Assembly: GCA_965205865.1 (NCBI GenBank)
Contig: CBDBHR010000028.1
Span: 512,001-576,000 of the forward strand
From: a bacterium
GTDB taxonomy: Bacteria > SAR324 > NAC60-12
Reading direction: 5' to 3'
Length of the DNA stretch: 64,000 nt
Shown here piece after piece: positions 22,967-55,735 of the stretch. A program made the position numbers and the translations under genes. Position 1 is the stretch's first letter; each line of letters starts with the position of its first letter. The notes under the pieces were generated by a model that was given only the letters and a program-made list of their open reading frames with translations, ran no database searches and was not told the DNA's origin.

Positions 22967-25567
22967 ATGGAAACTCGCGAATCCATTATCAGTAATTCCT
23001 CTCAGAACCCCTCATTCCAGGAACACCATCGGATCAGTGAGGACCTCCCGCCGCTGGCGGGGCATCGGGTCATCGACTTCGGCCACTACCTCGCGGGGCC
23101 GCTCGCCGGCATGCTGTTGGCCGACCAGGGCGCCGAGGTCATCAAGGTGGATCGCCCCGGCCACCCTTCCTGCGCCACCCCCGCGGGCGCGGTATTCAAC
23201 CGCGGCAAGCAGGTCCTGGAGCTGGACCTGAAGAGCGCTGCCGGCCGCGAGGCCGCATGGCGACTGGTGGCCTCGGCGGACGTGGTGATCGAGAACTTCC
23301 GTCCCGGGGTGATGGAACGGCTCGGGCTGGGCTCCGCCGCCATGGCGGCCGCCAACCCACGGCTGGTGTACCTGTCGCTGCCGGGCTTCGGCGCCGGCGA
23401 GGAACGCGCTTCGCTGCGCGCCTTCGAAGGGGTCCTCGGCGCCGCCACCGGGTTGTTTACCGACCTGCATTCGATTCGCCGCGAGCTGGAGGCGCCGCCG
23501 CAGTATACGCCGATCCCGCTGGCCTCCGCCTACGGCGCCGTCCACGGAGCGCTGGCGGTAGCCCTTTCGCTCTACGCCCGCGAGGAGAGCGGGCGCGGCG
23601 AGGTGATCGAGGTGCCGCTGGCCGGGGCCGCGATGTCGGCGATGGGCGCCTTCCTGCTGCGCGTTGCCGATGCGCCGGCGCGCTACGGCAAGCGTCCCAA
23701 TCCCGCCAACGACGAACTGCGCGCACGCATGCGGCAGGCCGACGCGGCCGAGCGCCGCCGGTTGATAGACCAGATCCGCCCCTGGCTGCCGCCGCTGTTC
23801 GACAGCTACCGAGCTAGCAACGGCCGCTGGGTGTTCCTGCTCGCCGGAAACAGCCGCCGCAACTCGGTCCAGCTCGCCAAGGCGCTGGGGATCTACGACG
23901 GCCTGATCGCCGACGGCATGGTCGACCTGCCGCCCTACCCCGACCTCACGCGGCCCAACAACATCCAGGACGTCGACGGCCTGTCGCGGGAGTGGAAGAA
24001 AACCCTCCGCGACCGCGTGGCGGCTGCCTTCCGGCAGCAGCCGGCGCACGACTGGACGCCGATCATGCGCCAGTTCGGGGTGCCGTTCAGCGTCCACCGC
24101 AGCACACAGGAGTGGTTGCACGCGCCGGAGACCGATGTCGCGGCGCTCACCGTGGAGGTCGTGGACCCGGCGCATGGAGCGATTCGCCAGCTCGGCGTGC
24201 AGACCTCGCTGGGCCGCACCGACCGGCGGTGGCACGTGCCGCGGCCGGCGCGGCCCGTCGACCTCGACGCCCTGCTGCGCGATCTCCCGGCCGCGACGAC
24301 CAACGGCGCCGGCGCCGCCGGCGGGGCGGCCCACGCGGCCACGCGCCCGGCGCCCATTCTCGCCGGTATCAAGGTGCTCGACCTGTCCACCGTGCTGGCC
24401 GGCCCCGGTTGCGCCCGCACCCTGGCGGAGTATGGCGCCGACGTGATCAAGATCGACGCACCCGATCCCTACTTCGGTCCCGGGACCGCGTACATGCTGC
24501 ACGTGGAAGTAGGCCAGGGCAAGCGCAGCATGATCCTGGACCTCAAGCAGGAGGAAGGCAGACGCCTGTTCGAGCAATTGGCCGGCGGCGCCGACGTGAT
24601 CGTGCACAACTTCCGGCCCGGCGTCGCCGAGCGGCTCGGCATCGACTACGCCAGCCTGGCGCGCATCAACCCCGGCATCGTCTACCTCAACCTGACCGCG
24701 TTCAATGGGCCGCGGCGCGGTCCGTGGACCGAGCTGCCCGGCTTCGATCCGGTGCTGCAGGCGGCTACGGGTATCCAGAACCGTTACGGCGGCCCCGGCG
24801 CGCCGCCCGAGCTGCACGGCTTCGCCTCCTGCATCGACTACCTGACCGGATACTCCGGCACCTACGGCATCGCCCTGGCCCTGCTGCGCCGCAAGCGCGA
24901 GGGCGGCGGCGACCTGGTGTTCACCTCCCTGGCGCAGGGCGGGCAACTGGTGCAGGCGCCCTTCGTGTGGGCCACCGCCGATGCCCGGCCCGACGACGGT
25001 CCACAGGGGCAGGAGGTCCTGGGCGCGCACTCCCTGGAGCACATGTACCGCGCCACCGACGGCTGGCTGATGCTGACCGGGCTGCCGGAGGATCTGCCGC
25101 GGCTGCACGAGATCCCGGAGCTGGCGGCAGTGCCGGTCGAGGTGGCCGAAGAGGCCGCGCGGATCGCCGCCCTGCAGGCTGCCATCGCGGAGCGGACGGT
25201 GTCCCACTGGGAGACCGCGTTCAACGCCGCGGGATTCGGCTGCCACCGGGTCGACTGCATCGAAGACGTGCGCCGCGCCGGCTTGCGCGAGATGACCGAC
25301 GCTGAACGCGCAGCGTGGAGCGACGGGCCGTCGATCTCGGTGATCCGCCTGCTCGACCACCCGGCCGGCAGTCCGGTCGACAATCCGGCCCCCACCTACG
25401 CGCGCTTCGCCGGCACGTCGCTGCGCCTCACCAACCCGATGCCCAAGATCGGCAGCCACACCCGCGCCATCCTGCGCGAGCTGGGCCACGACGACGCCCG
25501 GATCGACCGCTGGATCGACTCCGGCGTCGCCGCCGAGCAGATCCACGACGCCTACCTGCCGCACTGA
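22967..25567 (+). CDS. Tandem two-domain CaiB/BaiF CoA-transferase, very GC-rich (foreign origin)
   Basis: Two domains (LAGHRVIDFG...DQGAEVIKVD; LAGIKVLDLS...EYGADVIKID); third codon positions almost all G/C from about 23040. Confidence 0.9.
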   Translation: METRESIISNSSQNPSFQEHHRISEDLPPLAGHRVIDFGHYLAGPLAGMLLADQGAEVIKVDRPGHPSCATPAGAVFNRGKQVLELDLKSAAGREAAWRLVASADVVIENFRPGVMERLGLGSAAMAAANPRLVYLSLPGFGAGEERASLRAFEGVLGAATGLFTDLHSIRRELEAPPQYTPIPLASAYGAVHGALAVALSLYAREESGRGEVIEVPLAGAAMSAMGAFLLRVADAPARYGKRPNPANDELRARMRQADAAERRRLIDQIRPWLPPLFDSYRASNGRWVFLLAGNSRRNSVQLAKALGIYDGLIADGMVDLPPYPDLTRPNNIQDVDGLSREWKKTLRDRVAAAFRQQPAHDWTPIMRQFGVPFSVHRSTQEWLHAPETDVAALTVEVVDPAHGAIRQLGVQTSLGRTDRRWHVPRPARPVDLDALLRDLPAATTNGAGAAGGAAHAATRPAPILAGIKVLDLSTVLAGPGCARTLAEYGADVIKIDAPDPYFGPGTAYMLHVEVGQGKRSMILDLKQEEGRRLFEQLAGGADVIVHNFRPGVAERLGIDYASLARINPGIVYLNLTAFNGPRRGPWTELPGFDPVLQAATGIQNRYGGPGAPPELHGFASCIDYLTGYSGTYGIALALLRRKREGGGDLVFTSLAQGGQLVQAPFVWATADARPDDGPQGQEVLGAHSLEHMYRATDGWLMLTGLPEDLPRLHEIPELAAVPVEVAEEAARIAALQAAIAERTVSHWETAFNAAGFGCHRVDCIEDVRRAGLREMTDAERAAWSDGPSISVIRLLDHPAGSPVDNPAPTYARFAGTSLRLTNPMPKIGSHTRAILRELGHDDARIDRWIDSGVAAEQIHDAYLPH

Positions 25568-51140: not shown

Positions 51141-51860
51141 ATGAAGTTGGTTGATTTGGTTCAAGGACGTTATCTGAAACGTTATAAACGATTCTTCGTC
51201 GATGTGGAGTTGACTAGCGGAAAGATGGTGACAGCCCATTGCAATAATACAGGGAGCATGAAATCTCTGCTGCACTCCAACAACCCGGTTTGGCTGCAGT
51301 TTCATGAGCACCCGAAACGGAAGCTCAAATATACGCTCCACCTCATGCGGATGCCCACCGGAGCCCTTGTCTGCGTGAACACGCTTTTTCCCAATCAAAT
51401 CGTATTCGAGGCCATAAAAAATCAAAAACTACCAGCATTCCGTCATGCTGAATTCCTGAAAAAAGAAGTCCGTTTTGGTCGAGAAAATTCCAGGGTGGAT
51501 CTTTATCTGGAGAAAGCGGGAAAACCGACTTTTATTGAAATAAAAAATACCACCCTTGCGGAAGACAATCTCCCCGGGGTCGCTCAATTCCCGGATGCCG
51601 TCACTGAGCGAGGACGGAGACACTTGAACGAATTGAGTTACGAAGCGAGCAAAGGGCATCAAGCAGTGATTCTCTATCTGGTCAACCGTACCGATTGCAA
51701 CTCCTTTAGAATTGCGGAACATATCGACCCTCTTTATGCAAACGCCTTGCGGAAAGCCGCGGAGTGCGGAGTGGAAATCCAAATCCATCAAACCCGCATT
51801 GAAATATCTCAGGACCAAGCTATCATTGAAATTGATAGACCCTTGACAATTAAAAAATAG
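51141..51860 (+). CDS. sfsA: DNA/RNA nuclease SfsA
   Basis: RYKRFFVD, AHCNNTGSM, SRVD, IEIK, FPDAVTERG. Confidence 0.93.
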   Translation: MKLVDLVQGRYLKRYKRFFVDVELTSGKMVTAHCNNTGSMKSLLHSNNPVWLQFHEHPKRKLKYTLHLMRMPTGALVCVNTLFPNQIVFEAIKNQKLPAFRHAEFLKKEVRFGRENSRVDLYLEKAGKPTFIEIKNTTLAEDNLPGVAQFPDAVTERGRRHLNELSYEASKGHQAVILYLVNRTDCNSFRIAEHIDPLYANALRKAAECGVEIQIHQTRIEISQDQAIIEIDRPLTIKK

Positions 51861-51869
51861 GTCAAGAGA

Positions 51870-52103
51870 GCCGATCATTAGCCACACATTACTTGGGGGA
51901 ATATTCAAAACTACAAGAATATAATCGGGCATGGTATGCCCTTCTGCCGGATCAAGCCCCTTGCGTTTACAAAAATTACGCAAGATGGGATCCATCTGTT
52001 GGCGTTTGGCTCCATTAAATTGTTTTGCCCGATTTTTCGGAACAAACACAATATGATACTTGCGTATCCATTCAAACTGGGATAGTATTTAATACTCTCA
52101 CAT
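51870..52103 (-). pseudogene. IS200/IS605 TnpA remnant
   Basis: M*EY*ILS...W.RKYHIVFVPK...EGHTMPDYIL...NIPP; in-frame stops, HUH motif lost, truncated. Confidence 0.8.
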
Positions 52104-52272
52104 AGAATACTCTATGAGAGCTAACTCCTGAATTAGCAGTCTGTGGGGATTAATATCAGGCTGATTGGATGATCAATTATGGCAATTTCATTTCATAGGT
52201 CAAAAGCGTGTGATCAAAGTGTTACGACAACATTGATACAACTTTTGCCTCTGCAATATCTATAAAATCAAC

Positions 52273-54438
52273 ATGTCAAAGATTCATATACCTGTCTGGT
52301 TGAAACAAAGACCGATATTTCAAAATGATATATCTGAATTGCGACAAATGTTCTCAGAGACGGACAATCAGCAATTTGGCAATATCACTTCCCAATTCCT
52401 GAAGGAATGTTATCGACGGTTGCCAGCCAGGTCCTTTTATAAACTGGTAAGGGTCCTAGGCTTTTATGGAGTCCAATTTAGTGGGAAACTTGCTCCTTAT
52501 AGTATTCACCTGGAACCTTTGCCCCTTCTTATAAATATTCCCCAACGCTACTGGGAAGAACCATGTCCATCTTTTGATTCCTCTCTTTCCTCTTATTTTC
52601 TCTCATTAGGCATTCATCAGCTCAAGCAATTGCATGGTATTCCAAGGGTTAGTCTCAATCATGCTACCAAATTTTGGGGAAATTTGCATCACAGACAAAA
52701 AATTTCTCCTGAAATTGCATCAAGATGGTTTCATGCTTCATTCACCAAAGCTCATAAAGATTTTTTTAAGCGCAATACTCAAACAGATGTTTATGCGGCA
52801 AAAGAAAATTCAGTAAAAATAATCCTGGAAAATAAGGCAGTCAAACAAGTTTTGTTGCAACCGATTGACATACTAAACCTGTCAGAACGTTCTGGTAATT
52901 GTCTAAAATCCGTTGATATCCACACAATAGGAGAGTTGATTCAAAAAAATGAGAAGGAATTGCTTAAAATATGGAGCTTTGGAAGAAAATCTCTTCGTGA
53001 AATAAATCAAAAGCTATCCGGTTTCGGACTTCATTTAGGTATGAATAATGCCCCTCCGGATATTATAAAACCAATAATCGGAGTAGATTTAGTTTCAGAA
53101 GAAACCCTCTCTAAATTGAACACCTTATTATCTGATATAAAACTTACAGTAAGGAGTAAGAACGCTTTAGAATTACGTGGTATGAAATACATTTGGGAGC
53201 TGATTATCTTAAAGGAATCTGCTTTGAAACAAACAAAAAATATAGGAAGGAAATCCATTGATGAGTTTAAAAAGATTGTTGCGGATATAGGCTTCCAATT
53301 AGGAATGCAATTCACTCCGGATCAAATCGAAACGATTCAAAAATATCAAATAGATACACCGGAATTTTCCGGTAAATGGTTTGTTCATATAGTGCAAGAC
53401 CCGCTCTTGCTTCATCTGGACTTTCTCAACAAAAACAAGAAAATTATTGTTCACGAGAGAGTATGGAAACGTGAAAAAAAATACAAATTGATAGATATTG
53501 CGCAAAAATTGAATATAAGTCGTGAACGTGCTCGTCAAATTGAAAGCCAAGCTCTCAAGGAAATCAAACAACAATTTCAAAAAGAATTGAGAGATGCTAC
53601 GGCTGATATACGGGAGCAAGTTGAGGCATTGGGAGGAATCGCCAATCTGGAGGATCTCAAATTTCAAATAGATTTCTCTGTACAGGAACAAATCATCATG
53701 GATAGTTTGCTGTCATTGCAGGATGAACCAGTTTATATTGACTGGGAATGCAGATTGATTTGCAACAAAGGCAACTCTTGGATTGTCTCTCTGTGTAGTG
53801 ACATAAAAAAACTGTTGCAAAAAAATATTTCCCAAAGTGTTTTCTTTACTCTGCAGGAAGTTGAAAATGCTGTTGAACAAATTAGCAGTCAATATAAAAT
53901 ATTCCGAAACAGCCACATTCAGAATTTAGTCCGGCGATTTCTTCATGAAGAAGAAATATCTGAAGTTGGAAGATATTTACATTTTGGACGCACAACTAAA
54001 CGAGATAAATTGGCATTTGCTTTCAAAGAACTATTCCCTCAAGGATTGGAAATTTACAAGCAACGAGAATTGCTCTTGAAGAGGATTATAGAATTTGATC
54101 CTCAAACTTACCGGAATATGAAAATGCAGAGGATTGAGATCTTATTGACCGCTCATTCGGACATCATGCTTTGGGGAAAAAGATTTATGATTCATAAAGA
54201 ACATCTTTCATTTGATATCGATATTGCTAAACATGTTACTGCCTGGATCAAGCAACGATTCGAACAGGGATATTCCCAATTTCGGGTTCATTTACCCTAC
54301 AATCAATTTAAAACTCAATTACAACAAAATGGCATTCCCAATCCTTATGCGCTTTACACCGTTTTGAGAAATATCCAGGATGAACGAATTGGACAAAAAA
54401 GATTTCCAACAATTGTTGATTTGGATGCAGACGTCTAA
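52273..54438 (+). CDS. Protein with two RNA polymerase alpha-CTD domains and a sigma70 region-4 HTH; probably 3'-truncated
   Basis: [12 protein letters not shown]...GRKSLREI...[15 protein letters not shown]...NIGRKSIDE...[29 protein letters not shown]; low GC; coding-like sequence continues past the stop. Confidence 0.8.
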
Positions 54439-54667
54439 CTGAAAGAATGCGCCTCAGAAGAACTCGAAAACTATTTTTGAGAAAAATGACACTGTTCCAA
54501 ATGAAGTTCTAAAAAGAGAATTTCTCACGAAGAAAGGATGGAAAGAATATCATTTGCAACAAAATTTAAATCGTTCTGAAAAAGCTTCTTTTCAAAAACT
54601 ACACGCCATCAATGCTTCTCTTGCTTTATAAATCCATCTTGAGCAAGTTGTCTGCCCGTAACATCAG

Positions 54668-54899
54668 CTAATTTACACTATCAATTTGTTCACGAAATGC
54701 TGCTTCGCTAAATCGGAGAGCAAGCGAATCCCGAGAGATTCCCAAACCGAAATTGATAACCGCCGAAACAACCCATTCTCCGTCTAGCAGTATTATTCCA
54801 GTTGCTCTGGCCCGAAATTCTTCGTTACCACTGAAACGACCTGTTGTCACCAACATGCCAATCGACCCTTTTCGCTCTCCTTTAGAAGCATTTGAGTCA
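54668..54899 (-). pseudogene. C-terminal fragment of an Mrr-like restriction endonuclease, interrupted by MITE B
   Basis: GMLVTTGRFS...ARATGIILLDGE...FGLGI matches the Mrr C-terminal pattern. Confidence 0.6.
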
Positions 54900-54905
54900 T
54901 AAGTA

Positions 54906-55137
54906 ACCTGAGTTCGACATAAATCTTCAATAATATGAGTATCCTAGTGTATATGTCATCCTCGCGAAACTTGTCCTCGCGAAAGCGGGGAGCGGGGATC
55001 CGGATTTCAGTCTGGCTGTATACCTCCGGATTCCTTCCCTGCGTACGCAGGGATCTCGCAGGAATGACAAGGTTTCTCTAAGATATGAAGATTCCATAAC
55101 ATATTGAATTTATTAAATTCTTATCTCGAACTCAGGT
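54906..55137. mobile_element. MITE family B, copy 2 (232 bp)
   Basis: Same TIR as 330-545; TAAGTA duplicated at 54900-54905 and 55138-55143. Confidence 0.9.
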
Positions 55138-55735
55138 TAAGTAGTCATCCTCTGGAGTGTTGGTGCCTGTTCTCAGCAAAATTCACCCTGTGAAGTGTTG
55201 GGATTTTGCAAATAGATGGTGTTTTCCGGTGCGTTTCCCCCGGTTTTCAGGGTAACAACACTCAAGAGGGAGACTATCAGTTTTTTTGAAGTGACAAAAA
55301 AGTTATATTATCCAGTCAGGACAAAATTTCCCAATTCACTTTGCTCTCTCTTGCCTTACCCGGTGACGAGAGGATCGATCAGCGTCAACAAAGGCAGATT
55401 GGATTTTGACATGCCGGAGCAAACGATTGACAAGGAAAAATTGATTGTAGCATTGAACCGCTTGATTTCGGAAAACCATTGTGTGGAAACTCAATGGAAC
55501 CACGAACCAGAACTGTAAGCCATTCAAAACTTGGAGGTGGCACCATGTCCGCGCAACCGCCAAGAGGGCAAGGAAGAGTTCGTCTGGTCCATGTCAAGGG
55601 GTTAGATTTGCAATCCTGCGGATGCGCCTAACTTTCCAGAGCCGGCGAAATCGGCAAGTTTCTTCTCAGAAAAATAGAAAAGAAAGGGAAACAGAATCGT
55701 CGGGTAACAATTGTCTTTGATGAAAGACTGATCCT

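Follow-up and report, generated by a model that had tools for sequence, protein, structure and literature searches.

We found that a gene in the window, the whole 64,000-nt stretch of bacterial DNA analyzed here, is the relic of a defense cassette, with the 3′ third of the gene and all of its partner genes gone. It belongs to a protein family that we label X, in which RNA polymerase alpha C-terminal domains (alpha-CTDs) and sigma-70 region 4 (sigma-4) are followed by a probable winged-helix region. Elsewhere X joins PbeABCD/CxC-ABC systems as an optional fifth gene. Judging from sequence, we rate it slightly better than an even bet that the intact family is an enzyme-free DNA-reading subunit added to these CxC-ABC ATPase operons. 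Domain order, operon order, residue conservation, and an X stop that overlaps the start of pbeA were all directly observed. Coordinates of the window features are collected in Table 1.

Table 1. Features of the X gene and its surroundings in the window.
Feature	Position	Strand	Basis
Accessory island between sfsA and LLM-class oxidoreductase gene	51851..55718	.	Comparison with same-genus genome G001
IS200 tnpA remnant	51855..52088	-	Y1_Tnp E 4.1e-10, profile positions 6-62 of 121 (Pfam)
X, truncated allele, 721 aa	52273..54438	+	ORF; 66% identical to 1,080-aa homolog P0002
X N-terminal region, ~165 aa	52273..52770	+	No Pfam match; conserved in alignments of close homologs
Alpha-CTD copy 1, residues 191-257	52843..53043	+	Pfam, own profile, PDB alignment
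Alpha-CTD copy 2, residues 282-345	53116..53307	+	Pfam, own profile
Sigma-70 region 4 helix-turn-helix	53422..53586	+	Pfam; recognition helix SRERARQIE intact; F563 to V
First half of probable tandem winged-helix array	53590..54435	+	Suggested by P0002 model and weak structure matches
Premature TAA, lineage-fixed; Glu in homologs	54436..54438	+	tblastn, allele lengths, run contigs
Decaying coding remnant past stop	54439..54580	+	tblastn; frameshift near 54477-54481
Mrr-like nuclease gene, C-terminal piece, cut by repeat	54671..54895	-	Weak matches
Dispersed repeat, terminal inverted repeats, MITE/REP-like	54904..55140	.	Genome blastn

An earlier note, made from the sequence alone, had described tandem alpha-CTDs, both with their Arg, ahead of a sigma-4 helix-turn-helix in an AT-rich gene. 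Pfam, our own profile and PDB alignment agree on the domains, and the gene has GC 0.361 versus 0.479 for the contig. Pfam matched RNA_pol_A_CTD over two stretches of the 721-aa protein (E 9.6e-33) and Sigma70_r4 at residues 385-432 (E 4.7e-8). PDB alignment equates the Arg of both alpha-CTD motifs (LSERS and LTVRS) with E. coli R265; it is residue 206 in copy 1, where E261 is replaced by N and N294 by S, and residue 294 in copy 2, where E261 is replaced by K. The homolog model of copy 1 superimposes on the RNA polymerase alpha-CTD with Z 13.3 and rmsd 0.9 over 67 aligned residues. RpoA and RpoD are the source of the X modules, with about 45-50% identity over the alpha-CTD, but the alpha N-terminal domain of RpoA and sigma regions 1-3 of RpoD are absent from X, and the best NCBIfam score to the RpoA family was 137.7 bits (cut-off 302), covering the CTD only. 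A misassembled rpoA or rpoD was ruled out; the true host rpoA and rpoD are at other sites.

Protein-like sequence had also been seen past the TAA, and this was confirmed with the homolog P0002, whose tblastn match stays in frame across the TAA up to residue 736, changes frame close to 54477, and is lost after residue 771 (about 54580), leaving the final ~310 aa missing in the window. Intact relatives from the close clade have 1,050-1,180 aa. A word-indexed search with residues 330-721 found four clusters among 4,019 candidates: three have 1,066-1,089 aa and the fourth, at 94% identity, 721 aa. Every one of the 12 proteins in that fourth cluster has 721 aa and shares 95-100% identity with the window protein; the stop is therefore fixed in the lineage. 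A check of reads over 54436-54480 had been proposed: contigs from two runs, each of a different study, cover the stop and show zero differences at it, and together with the 12/12 alleles of 721 aa they rule out an assembly error at the TAA. Strain comparison covered 4 of 24 runs; among the 40 of 144 differences listed were deletions past the stop (54550 to 55451, 54609 to 55708, and one base at 54481) and no indels within the X ORF. With the 3′ third and the partner genes gone, the window locus cannot work as Pbe.

X occupies a 3.87-kb island. The same-genus genome, a single contig here, matches the window until 51850 and resumes at 55719, with ~75 bp between; a same-family genome (G004) has other genes at the site. 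Housekeeping synteny is ruled out by these two genomes. Homologs run ~360 aa further than the window copy, are patchily distributed and lie in defense operons; the earlier suggestion of a defense association in a decayed locus is thereby upheld, the 3′ third and partners being lost here. As to the flanks, the IS200 remnant stands, and tblastn found no second copy in the genome. The Mrr-like remnant is plausible, if weak: Mrr_cat matched below cut-off (E 0.041, profile positions 75-112 of 115) and PADLOC PDC-S02 matched with E 5.4e-4. It lies on the opposite strand and was ruled out as the partner of X; the Mrr-type gene of another X locus (L018) had no tblastn match in the host genome. The dispersed repeat had 53 blastn matches of at least 200 nt in the genome, the window's own counted; it is ~240 bp long with an inner REP-like palindrome, and copies also occur in the same-genus genome. 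A promoter scan of the island found 9 sites versus 11.2 expected. In the host genome (completeness 91.9%), PbeC, PbeD, DndC, DndD and DndE had no match, and PbeA had weak generic helicase matches only. Elsewhere in the window, positions 23001-25500 have ~71-72% GC within a contig of 48% GC.

The family was collected by a profile-free scan with 272 residues after sigma-4, which gave 155 representatives, 150 of them listed. Sigma-4 is found in all but 11 of 152 collected proteins plus that of the window; the 11 are fragment-like, at 150-665 aa. An alpha-CTD is detectable in 44 of the 124 homologs whose C-terminal part is long, and always lies ahead of sigma-4; in 115 of the 124 the length from sigma-4 to the end is 645-722 aa. 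The earlier note supposed that an effector end had been lost, perhaps a nuclease. A C-terminal part has indeed been lost, but no C-terminal nuclease or other enzyme family was found in 86 homologs scanned with Pfam, and these scans, the constant length, and the repeated helix-strand pattern of the model described below all speak against a nuclease there. N-terminal extras among the 86 are DUF4145 (8), TPR, DUF7226, zinc ribbon, and a RuvC-like domain (1). The DUF4145 carriers (P0025, P0033, P0042, P0043, P0068, P0069, P0073 and P0119) are Bacillota-type proteins of ~1,400 aa. We take DUF4145 to be HEPN-related; it is a candidate built-in effector. No X homolog longer than 1,263 aa was found among 7,043 candidates, which is weak evidence.

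An AlphaFold2 model of P0002 from a 13-row alignment had mean pLDDT 75 and pTM 0.40. After sigma-4 its secondary structure, read by eye, has about eight helix-helix-helix-strand-strand repeats. Foldseek with the whole model found alpha-CTDs as the only clear matches. In a structure search, four stretches after sigma-4 matched winged-helix-type chains at Z 6.7-7.9, where the tool's mark is 8: 2od5 (Z 7.9, rmsd 3.0, 75 aligned), 5aim (Z 6.8, rmsd 2.6, 68 aligned), 9j89 (Z 6.7, rmsd 2.3, 62 aligned) and 8ylf (Z 6.7, rmsd 3.4, 81 aligned). We take these chains to be winged helices. The modeled region after sigma-4 is probably a tandem winged-helix array, and the part lost from the window copy looks like more winged-helix domains rather than a nuclease. 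Two further predictions carry no weight here: a single-sequence fold of the C-terminal fragment P0005 (pLDDT 37) was left unused, and a complex of PbeA with X residues 770-1066 (score 0.01) was counted neither way.

X was found in 2/88 genomes of the host's phylum: that of the window and another whose copy is a partner-less fragment of 501 aa. Counts in the phyla of Desulfocapsa, Paenibacillus and Scalindua were 3/401, 11/401 and 1/301, each including the centre genome. Two collection scans gave 22 X loci, with near-duplicates L001/L014, L004/L020 and L012/L013. pbeA directly follows X in 14 of these, and then come pbeB, pbeC and pbeD; pbeA was assigned by PADLOC in 5, by alignment or motif in 5, and by ORF-start likeness in 4. 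In two further loci pbeC is the next gene, in four X abuts PDC-M26, Zorya or type III restriction (twice), and the remaining two are a truncated copy without partner and a contig too short. Type I or III restriction genes also occur among the neighbors of X across loci. The pbeA ATG lies inside the last X codons at 10/13 junctions; at the remaining three it either abuts the stop or overlaps it. Six of the 14 pbeA loci have dnd genes that converge on the operon (4 by PADLOC, 2 by ORF likeness). A neighboring nuclease had been proposed as partner; intact loci do have one, the product of the adjacent pbeA, while the Mrr remnant is not the usual partner.

Of the 11 loci fetched from 401 evenly sampled genomes of the Paenibacillus phylum, 5 are X-pbeA-pbeC-pbeD, one with an X of 720 aa; 2 have X ahead of brxP-brxC-pglZ, 1 is a broken orphan, and 3 have short X forms of 571-580 aa. 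The BrxP-type BREX cases, with X relatives directly upstream of brxP-brxC-pglZ, are at L119:3181-15669 and L122:3-13141; the family is therefore not tied to Pbe only. The short forms (L120:730-2457, L121:5246-6985 and L124:10452-12164) are alpha-CTD/sigma-4 proteins that share a non-defense neighborhood with dnaE and nrdG, and are possibly a domesticated branch. Among 401 genomes of one phylum, six have a strong PbeA match, with X upstream in three, absent in one, and a contig edge in two.

On plasmids, 26 records have a PbeA-like helicase, and among seven examined X is present in two and absent in five. These plasmid X cassettes were found through PbeA only; the P0005 C-terminal fragment had no tblastn match among plasmids and phages. 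The L. plantarum plasmids, among them NZ_CP023177.1, likewise have the order X-pbeA-pbeB-pbeC-pbeD, and their X proteins match the C-terminal profile with E 4e-20 and 1e-5. Both X-bearing cassettes (L101:4771-12046 and L112:2573-10020) have a helicase without HKD domain, so no nuclease is evident in them, while X-less cassettes from L. plantarum and Leuconostoc retain the HKD domain. Small cassettes that differ in having or lacking X and the nuclease domain thus offer a ready-made comparison in a host convenient for laboratory work.

The partner genes were identified individually. PbeA matched PADLOC with E 1e-208 to 1e-221 in 5/5 loci scanned, and its HxK and GSxN motifs are present in 10/10 aligned X-adjacent copies from chromosomal or metagenomic loci. 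PbeC has PADLOC matches, with CxC in 10 of 11 examined and CxxC in the L. plantarum copy. PbeB is identified from its size and position rather than from a profile, as a conserved ~60-aa frame in the pbeA-pbeC gap in the 10 loci translated; plasmid genes at this position are annotated at 56-60 aa. The PbeD-like protein of ~150 aa matched TIGR04062 above cut-off in 1/5, below it in 3/5 and not at all in 1/5, and PADLOC gave no match. In many loci pbeD is followed by a radical-SAM-like gene (start ILLVEP..Y..KYPPLGLMK), in some cases together with an HSP90-like ATPase gene (L004:6205-7305, L010:16313-17722, L105:8909-10306, L115:13986-16040, L116:3280-5310 and L117:3355-4836); the radical-SAM-like gene could be a DNA-modifying partner where dnd genes are absent. 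PbeA-like helicases of ~530 aa, matching the helicase part of the profile only, occur in other contexts (L096 and L097, from G166 and G116).

The combination of alpha-CTD, sigma-4 and winged helix has probably been noted already: Aravind and Iyer are said to have described, in 2012, bacterial proteins in which features of the alpha subunit and of sigma factors occur together with a winged-helix (HARE-HTH) domain. HARE-HTH (PF05066) had no Pfam match in X or the 86 scanned homologs, and the pointer to it for X was an Atlas lead at 0.83 only. Sigma-70 factors have regions 2 and 4 together, whereas X matches region 4 only. MzaA of the Mza anti-phage system is a sigma-70-like first gene of a defense operon; its match to X is weak (27 bits versus the 800 cut-off) and covers region 4 only, and X differs in having no sigma region 2 match and other partners. 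PglW of type 2 BREX resembles X in that its alpha-CTD-like domain precedes three winged helices (PMC12839542). PglW profile matches cover the alpha-CTD/sigma-4 part of X (33 bits versus the 990 cut-off), but PglW has NERD nuclease, kinase and STAND domains and X has no enzyme domain.

PbeABCD was described as four genes (Xiong et al., 2019; PMC6459918) and re-annotated as a CxC ABC-ATPase/DndE system (Rakesh, Aravind and Krishnan, 2024; PMC10853773). The genes downstream of intact X match its HKD-nuclease/SF2 helicase, ~60-aa protein, CxC ABC ATPase and ~150-aa dnd_assoc_4-like protein, and intact X loci, like PbeABCD, often adjoin dnd genes; the genome of the window lacks all four of the described genes. 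The main text on PbeABCD counts 320/553 pbeAC pairs without dnd genes (PMC6459918). An alpha-CTD/sigma-4 fifth gene is absent from both main texts, though their supplements may list it, and the words sigma and RNA polymerase are absent from that of PMC6459918. A literature search found no description of the five-gene X-Pbe form.

We aligned 115 alpha-CTD copies from 54 proteins with 31 RpoA controls, a narrow set made up of the host and the 30 top-scoring among 41 genomes from a single phylum, and 141 sigma-4 copies with host RpoD, taking E. coli numbering from PDB alignments. In the alpha-CTD, R265 (101/113), G296 (105/114) and N294 (80/114) are kept; N268 is found in 70/115, K298 in 63/114, and S or T at 299 in 87/114. 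E261 is kept in 6/106 versus 31/31 RpoA controls, and T292 (kept in 5/115) and K271 (17/115) are likewise mostly lost in X but nearly invariant in RpoA. We take E261 to be a sigma contact and presume DNA-contact roles for the alpha-CTD positions other than R265. In sigma-4, Q589 (141/141), T or S at 583 (141/141), R586 (138/141), R588 (135/141), E585 (133/141), L573 (130/141) and R584 (129/141) are kept. Some -35 contacts are not, namely D570 (1/141), Y571 and R596 (21/139), and core-only contacts are mostly lost: E555 (24/138), F563 (25/139), I565 (9/126) and L598 (58/132). The -35 and core contacts are those listed in PMC4943231, and R584 and E585 are given as base-reading residues in PMC2613000. 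R265 contacts the UP element and is also the Alt/ModA target; AsiA touches the sigma-4 residues that contact -35 DNA plus the beta-flap, and a change at F563 weakens AsiA binding (PMC2988021). Selection thus acts on the DNA faces of the X modules. With DNA contacts kept and protein contacts lost, a DNA or promoter reader is favored over an AsiA/ModA decoy, with the caveat that G296 and N294 are also structural.

On the subunit reading, two or three alpha-CTDs would grip A/T-rich DNA, as on UP elements, sigma-4 would read a -35-like hexamer, and the winged-helix array would wrap DNA and hold partners. At promoter-like sites such as strong early promoters of phages, X might in this way load, or license, both the HKD-nuclease/SF2 helicase PbeA and the PbeC-PbeD scanner. 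A promoter-module fifth subunit would offer a candidate answer to how PbeABCD chooses its target, by recognition of promoter-like DNA. However, X also heads BREX operons and is found beside Zorya, restriction or PDC-M26 genes, and a regulator or a free module fits this equally with a Pbe subunit. Also weighing against the subunit reading are the optional presence of X in Pbe loci, the short forms in a non-defense neighborhood, the detection of an alpha-CTD in just 44 of 124 homologs, the -35 contacts that are not kept, and winged-helix matches with Z below 8. One broader version, possible though distinctly less probable, has X as a promoter sensor that marks exposed strong promoters on incoming DNA as foreign and serves Pbe, BREX and possibly others, the 721-aa version being kept for a second DNA-binding use. 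As a transcriptional regulator, X would bind its own promoter through the UP and -35 modules and occlude RNA polymerase from the defense operon that it leads until infection. X comes first in both the Pbe and the BREX operons seen, and several different systems partner with it; its DNA-contact residues are conserved, short relatives occur outside defense islands, and a truncated copy could stay as a regulator after partner loss. We nevertheless think a regulator unlikely: the ~690 aa of constant length after sigma-4 would be far beyond the needs of a repressor, the stop/start overlap suggests equal amounts of X and PbeA, and Pfam found no ligand-sensing domain in X and the 86 scanned homologs.

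The earlier note proposed a bait for phage proteins or, alternatively, a promoter-binding regulator; the conserved residues fit a promoter-binding protein better. As an integrated decoy, X would release PbeA once its alpha-CTD or sigma-4 became the target of an ADP-ribosyltransferase, an anti-sigma factor or an activator from a phage. Conservation of R265 is compatible with this because that residue is both DNA contact and Alt/ModA target, the conserved sigma-4 helix is partly an AsiA surface (PMC2988021), and PglW likewise bears an alpha-CTD-like domain (PMC12839542). Yet F563, important for AsiA binding, is among the residues mostly lost, as is alpha E261; the alpha-CTD copies diverge from RpoA at many near-invariant surface positions, where good bait should resemble its target; and most homologs have lost a recognizable alpha-CTD while keeping the recognition helix. 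We regard the decoy as quite improbable. More improbable still is X as an effector, released by the helicase or ATPase to occupy promoters and stop transcription in abortive infection, or delivering an N-terminal toxin domain. It would suit the two L. plantarum plasmid cassettes that pair X with an HKD-less helicase when X-less ones retain HKD, the N-terminal DUF4145 and RuvC-like domains (8/86 and 1/86), and the block of viral replication by PbeABCD with no visible DNA cleavage (PMC6459918). Against it, the PbeA nuclease motif is kept in most cassettes, and the partner-less 721-aa copy persists in 12 alleles with all its promoter-binding modules, which argues against strong toxicity if the protein is expressed.

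We give a little less than an even chance that the 721-aa product persists as a DNA-binding protein acting on its own; slow decay may be happening instead. On whether purifying selection has continued, the sequence gives mixed signs. Across the 12 alleles, 9/147 family-conserved sites vary versus 74/574 others (Fisher p 0.02), and changes at the former are mostly conservative; the 92 allele changes have a mean BLOSUM62 score of 0.38 versus about -0.3 for random single-base missense (p < 0.001). No nonsense change was observed where ~6.5 were expected, although broken alleles may fall outside the cluster, and there were no near-identical X fragments of 30-395 aa among 4,450 candidates. On the other side, one strain contig has 13 non-synonymous and 6 synonymous changes (pN/pS 0.59, p 0.27 against neutrality), while four intact X pairs have dN/dS 0.17-0.37. 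The truncated lineage has also fixed changes at the equivalents of sigma T572 and E574 and alpha N294. The alleles look mosaic, so some variation may predate the stop. Contigs of one RNA run cover the X gene but also its non-coding flanks, and are thus uninformative on X expression. Truncated and alone, the window copy is a poor test object, though it may show a defense gene kept after system loss. X truncation and partner loss seem to go together. Two other independently truncated, partner-less copies, L057:8822-10324 (501 aa) and L017:2051-4078 (676 aa), have kept their alpha-CTDs.
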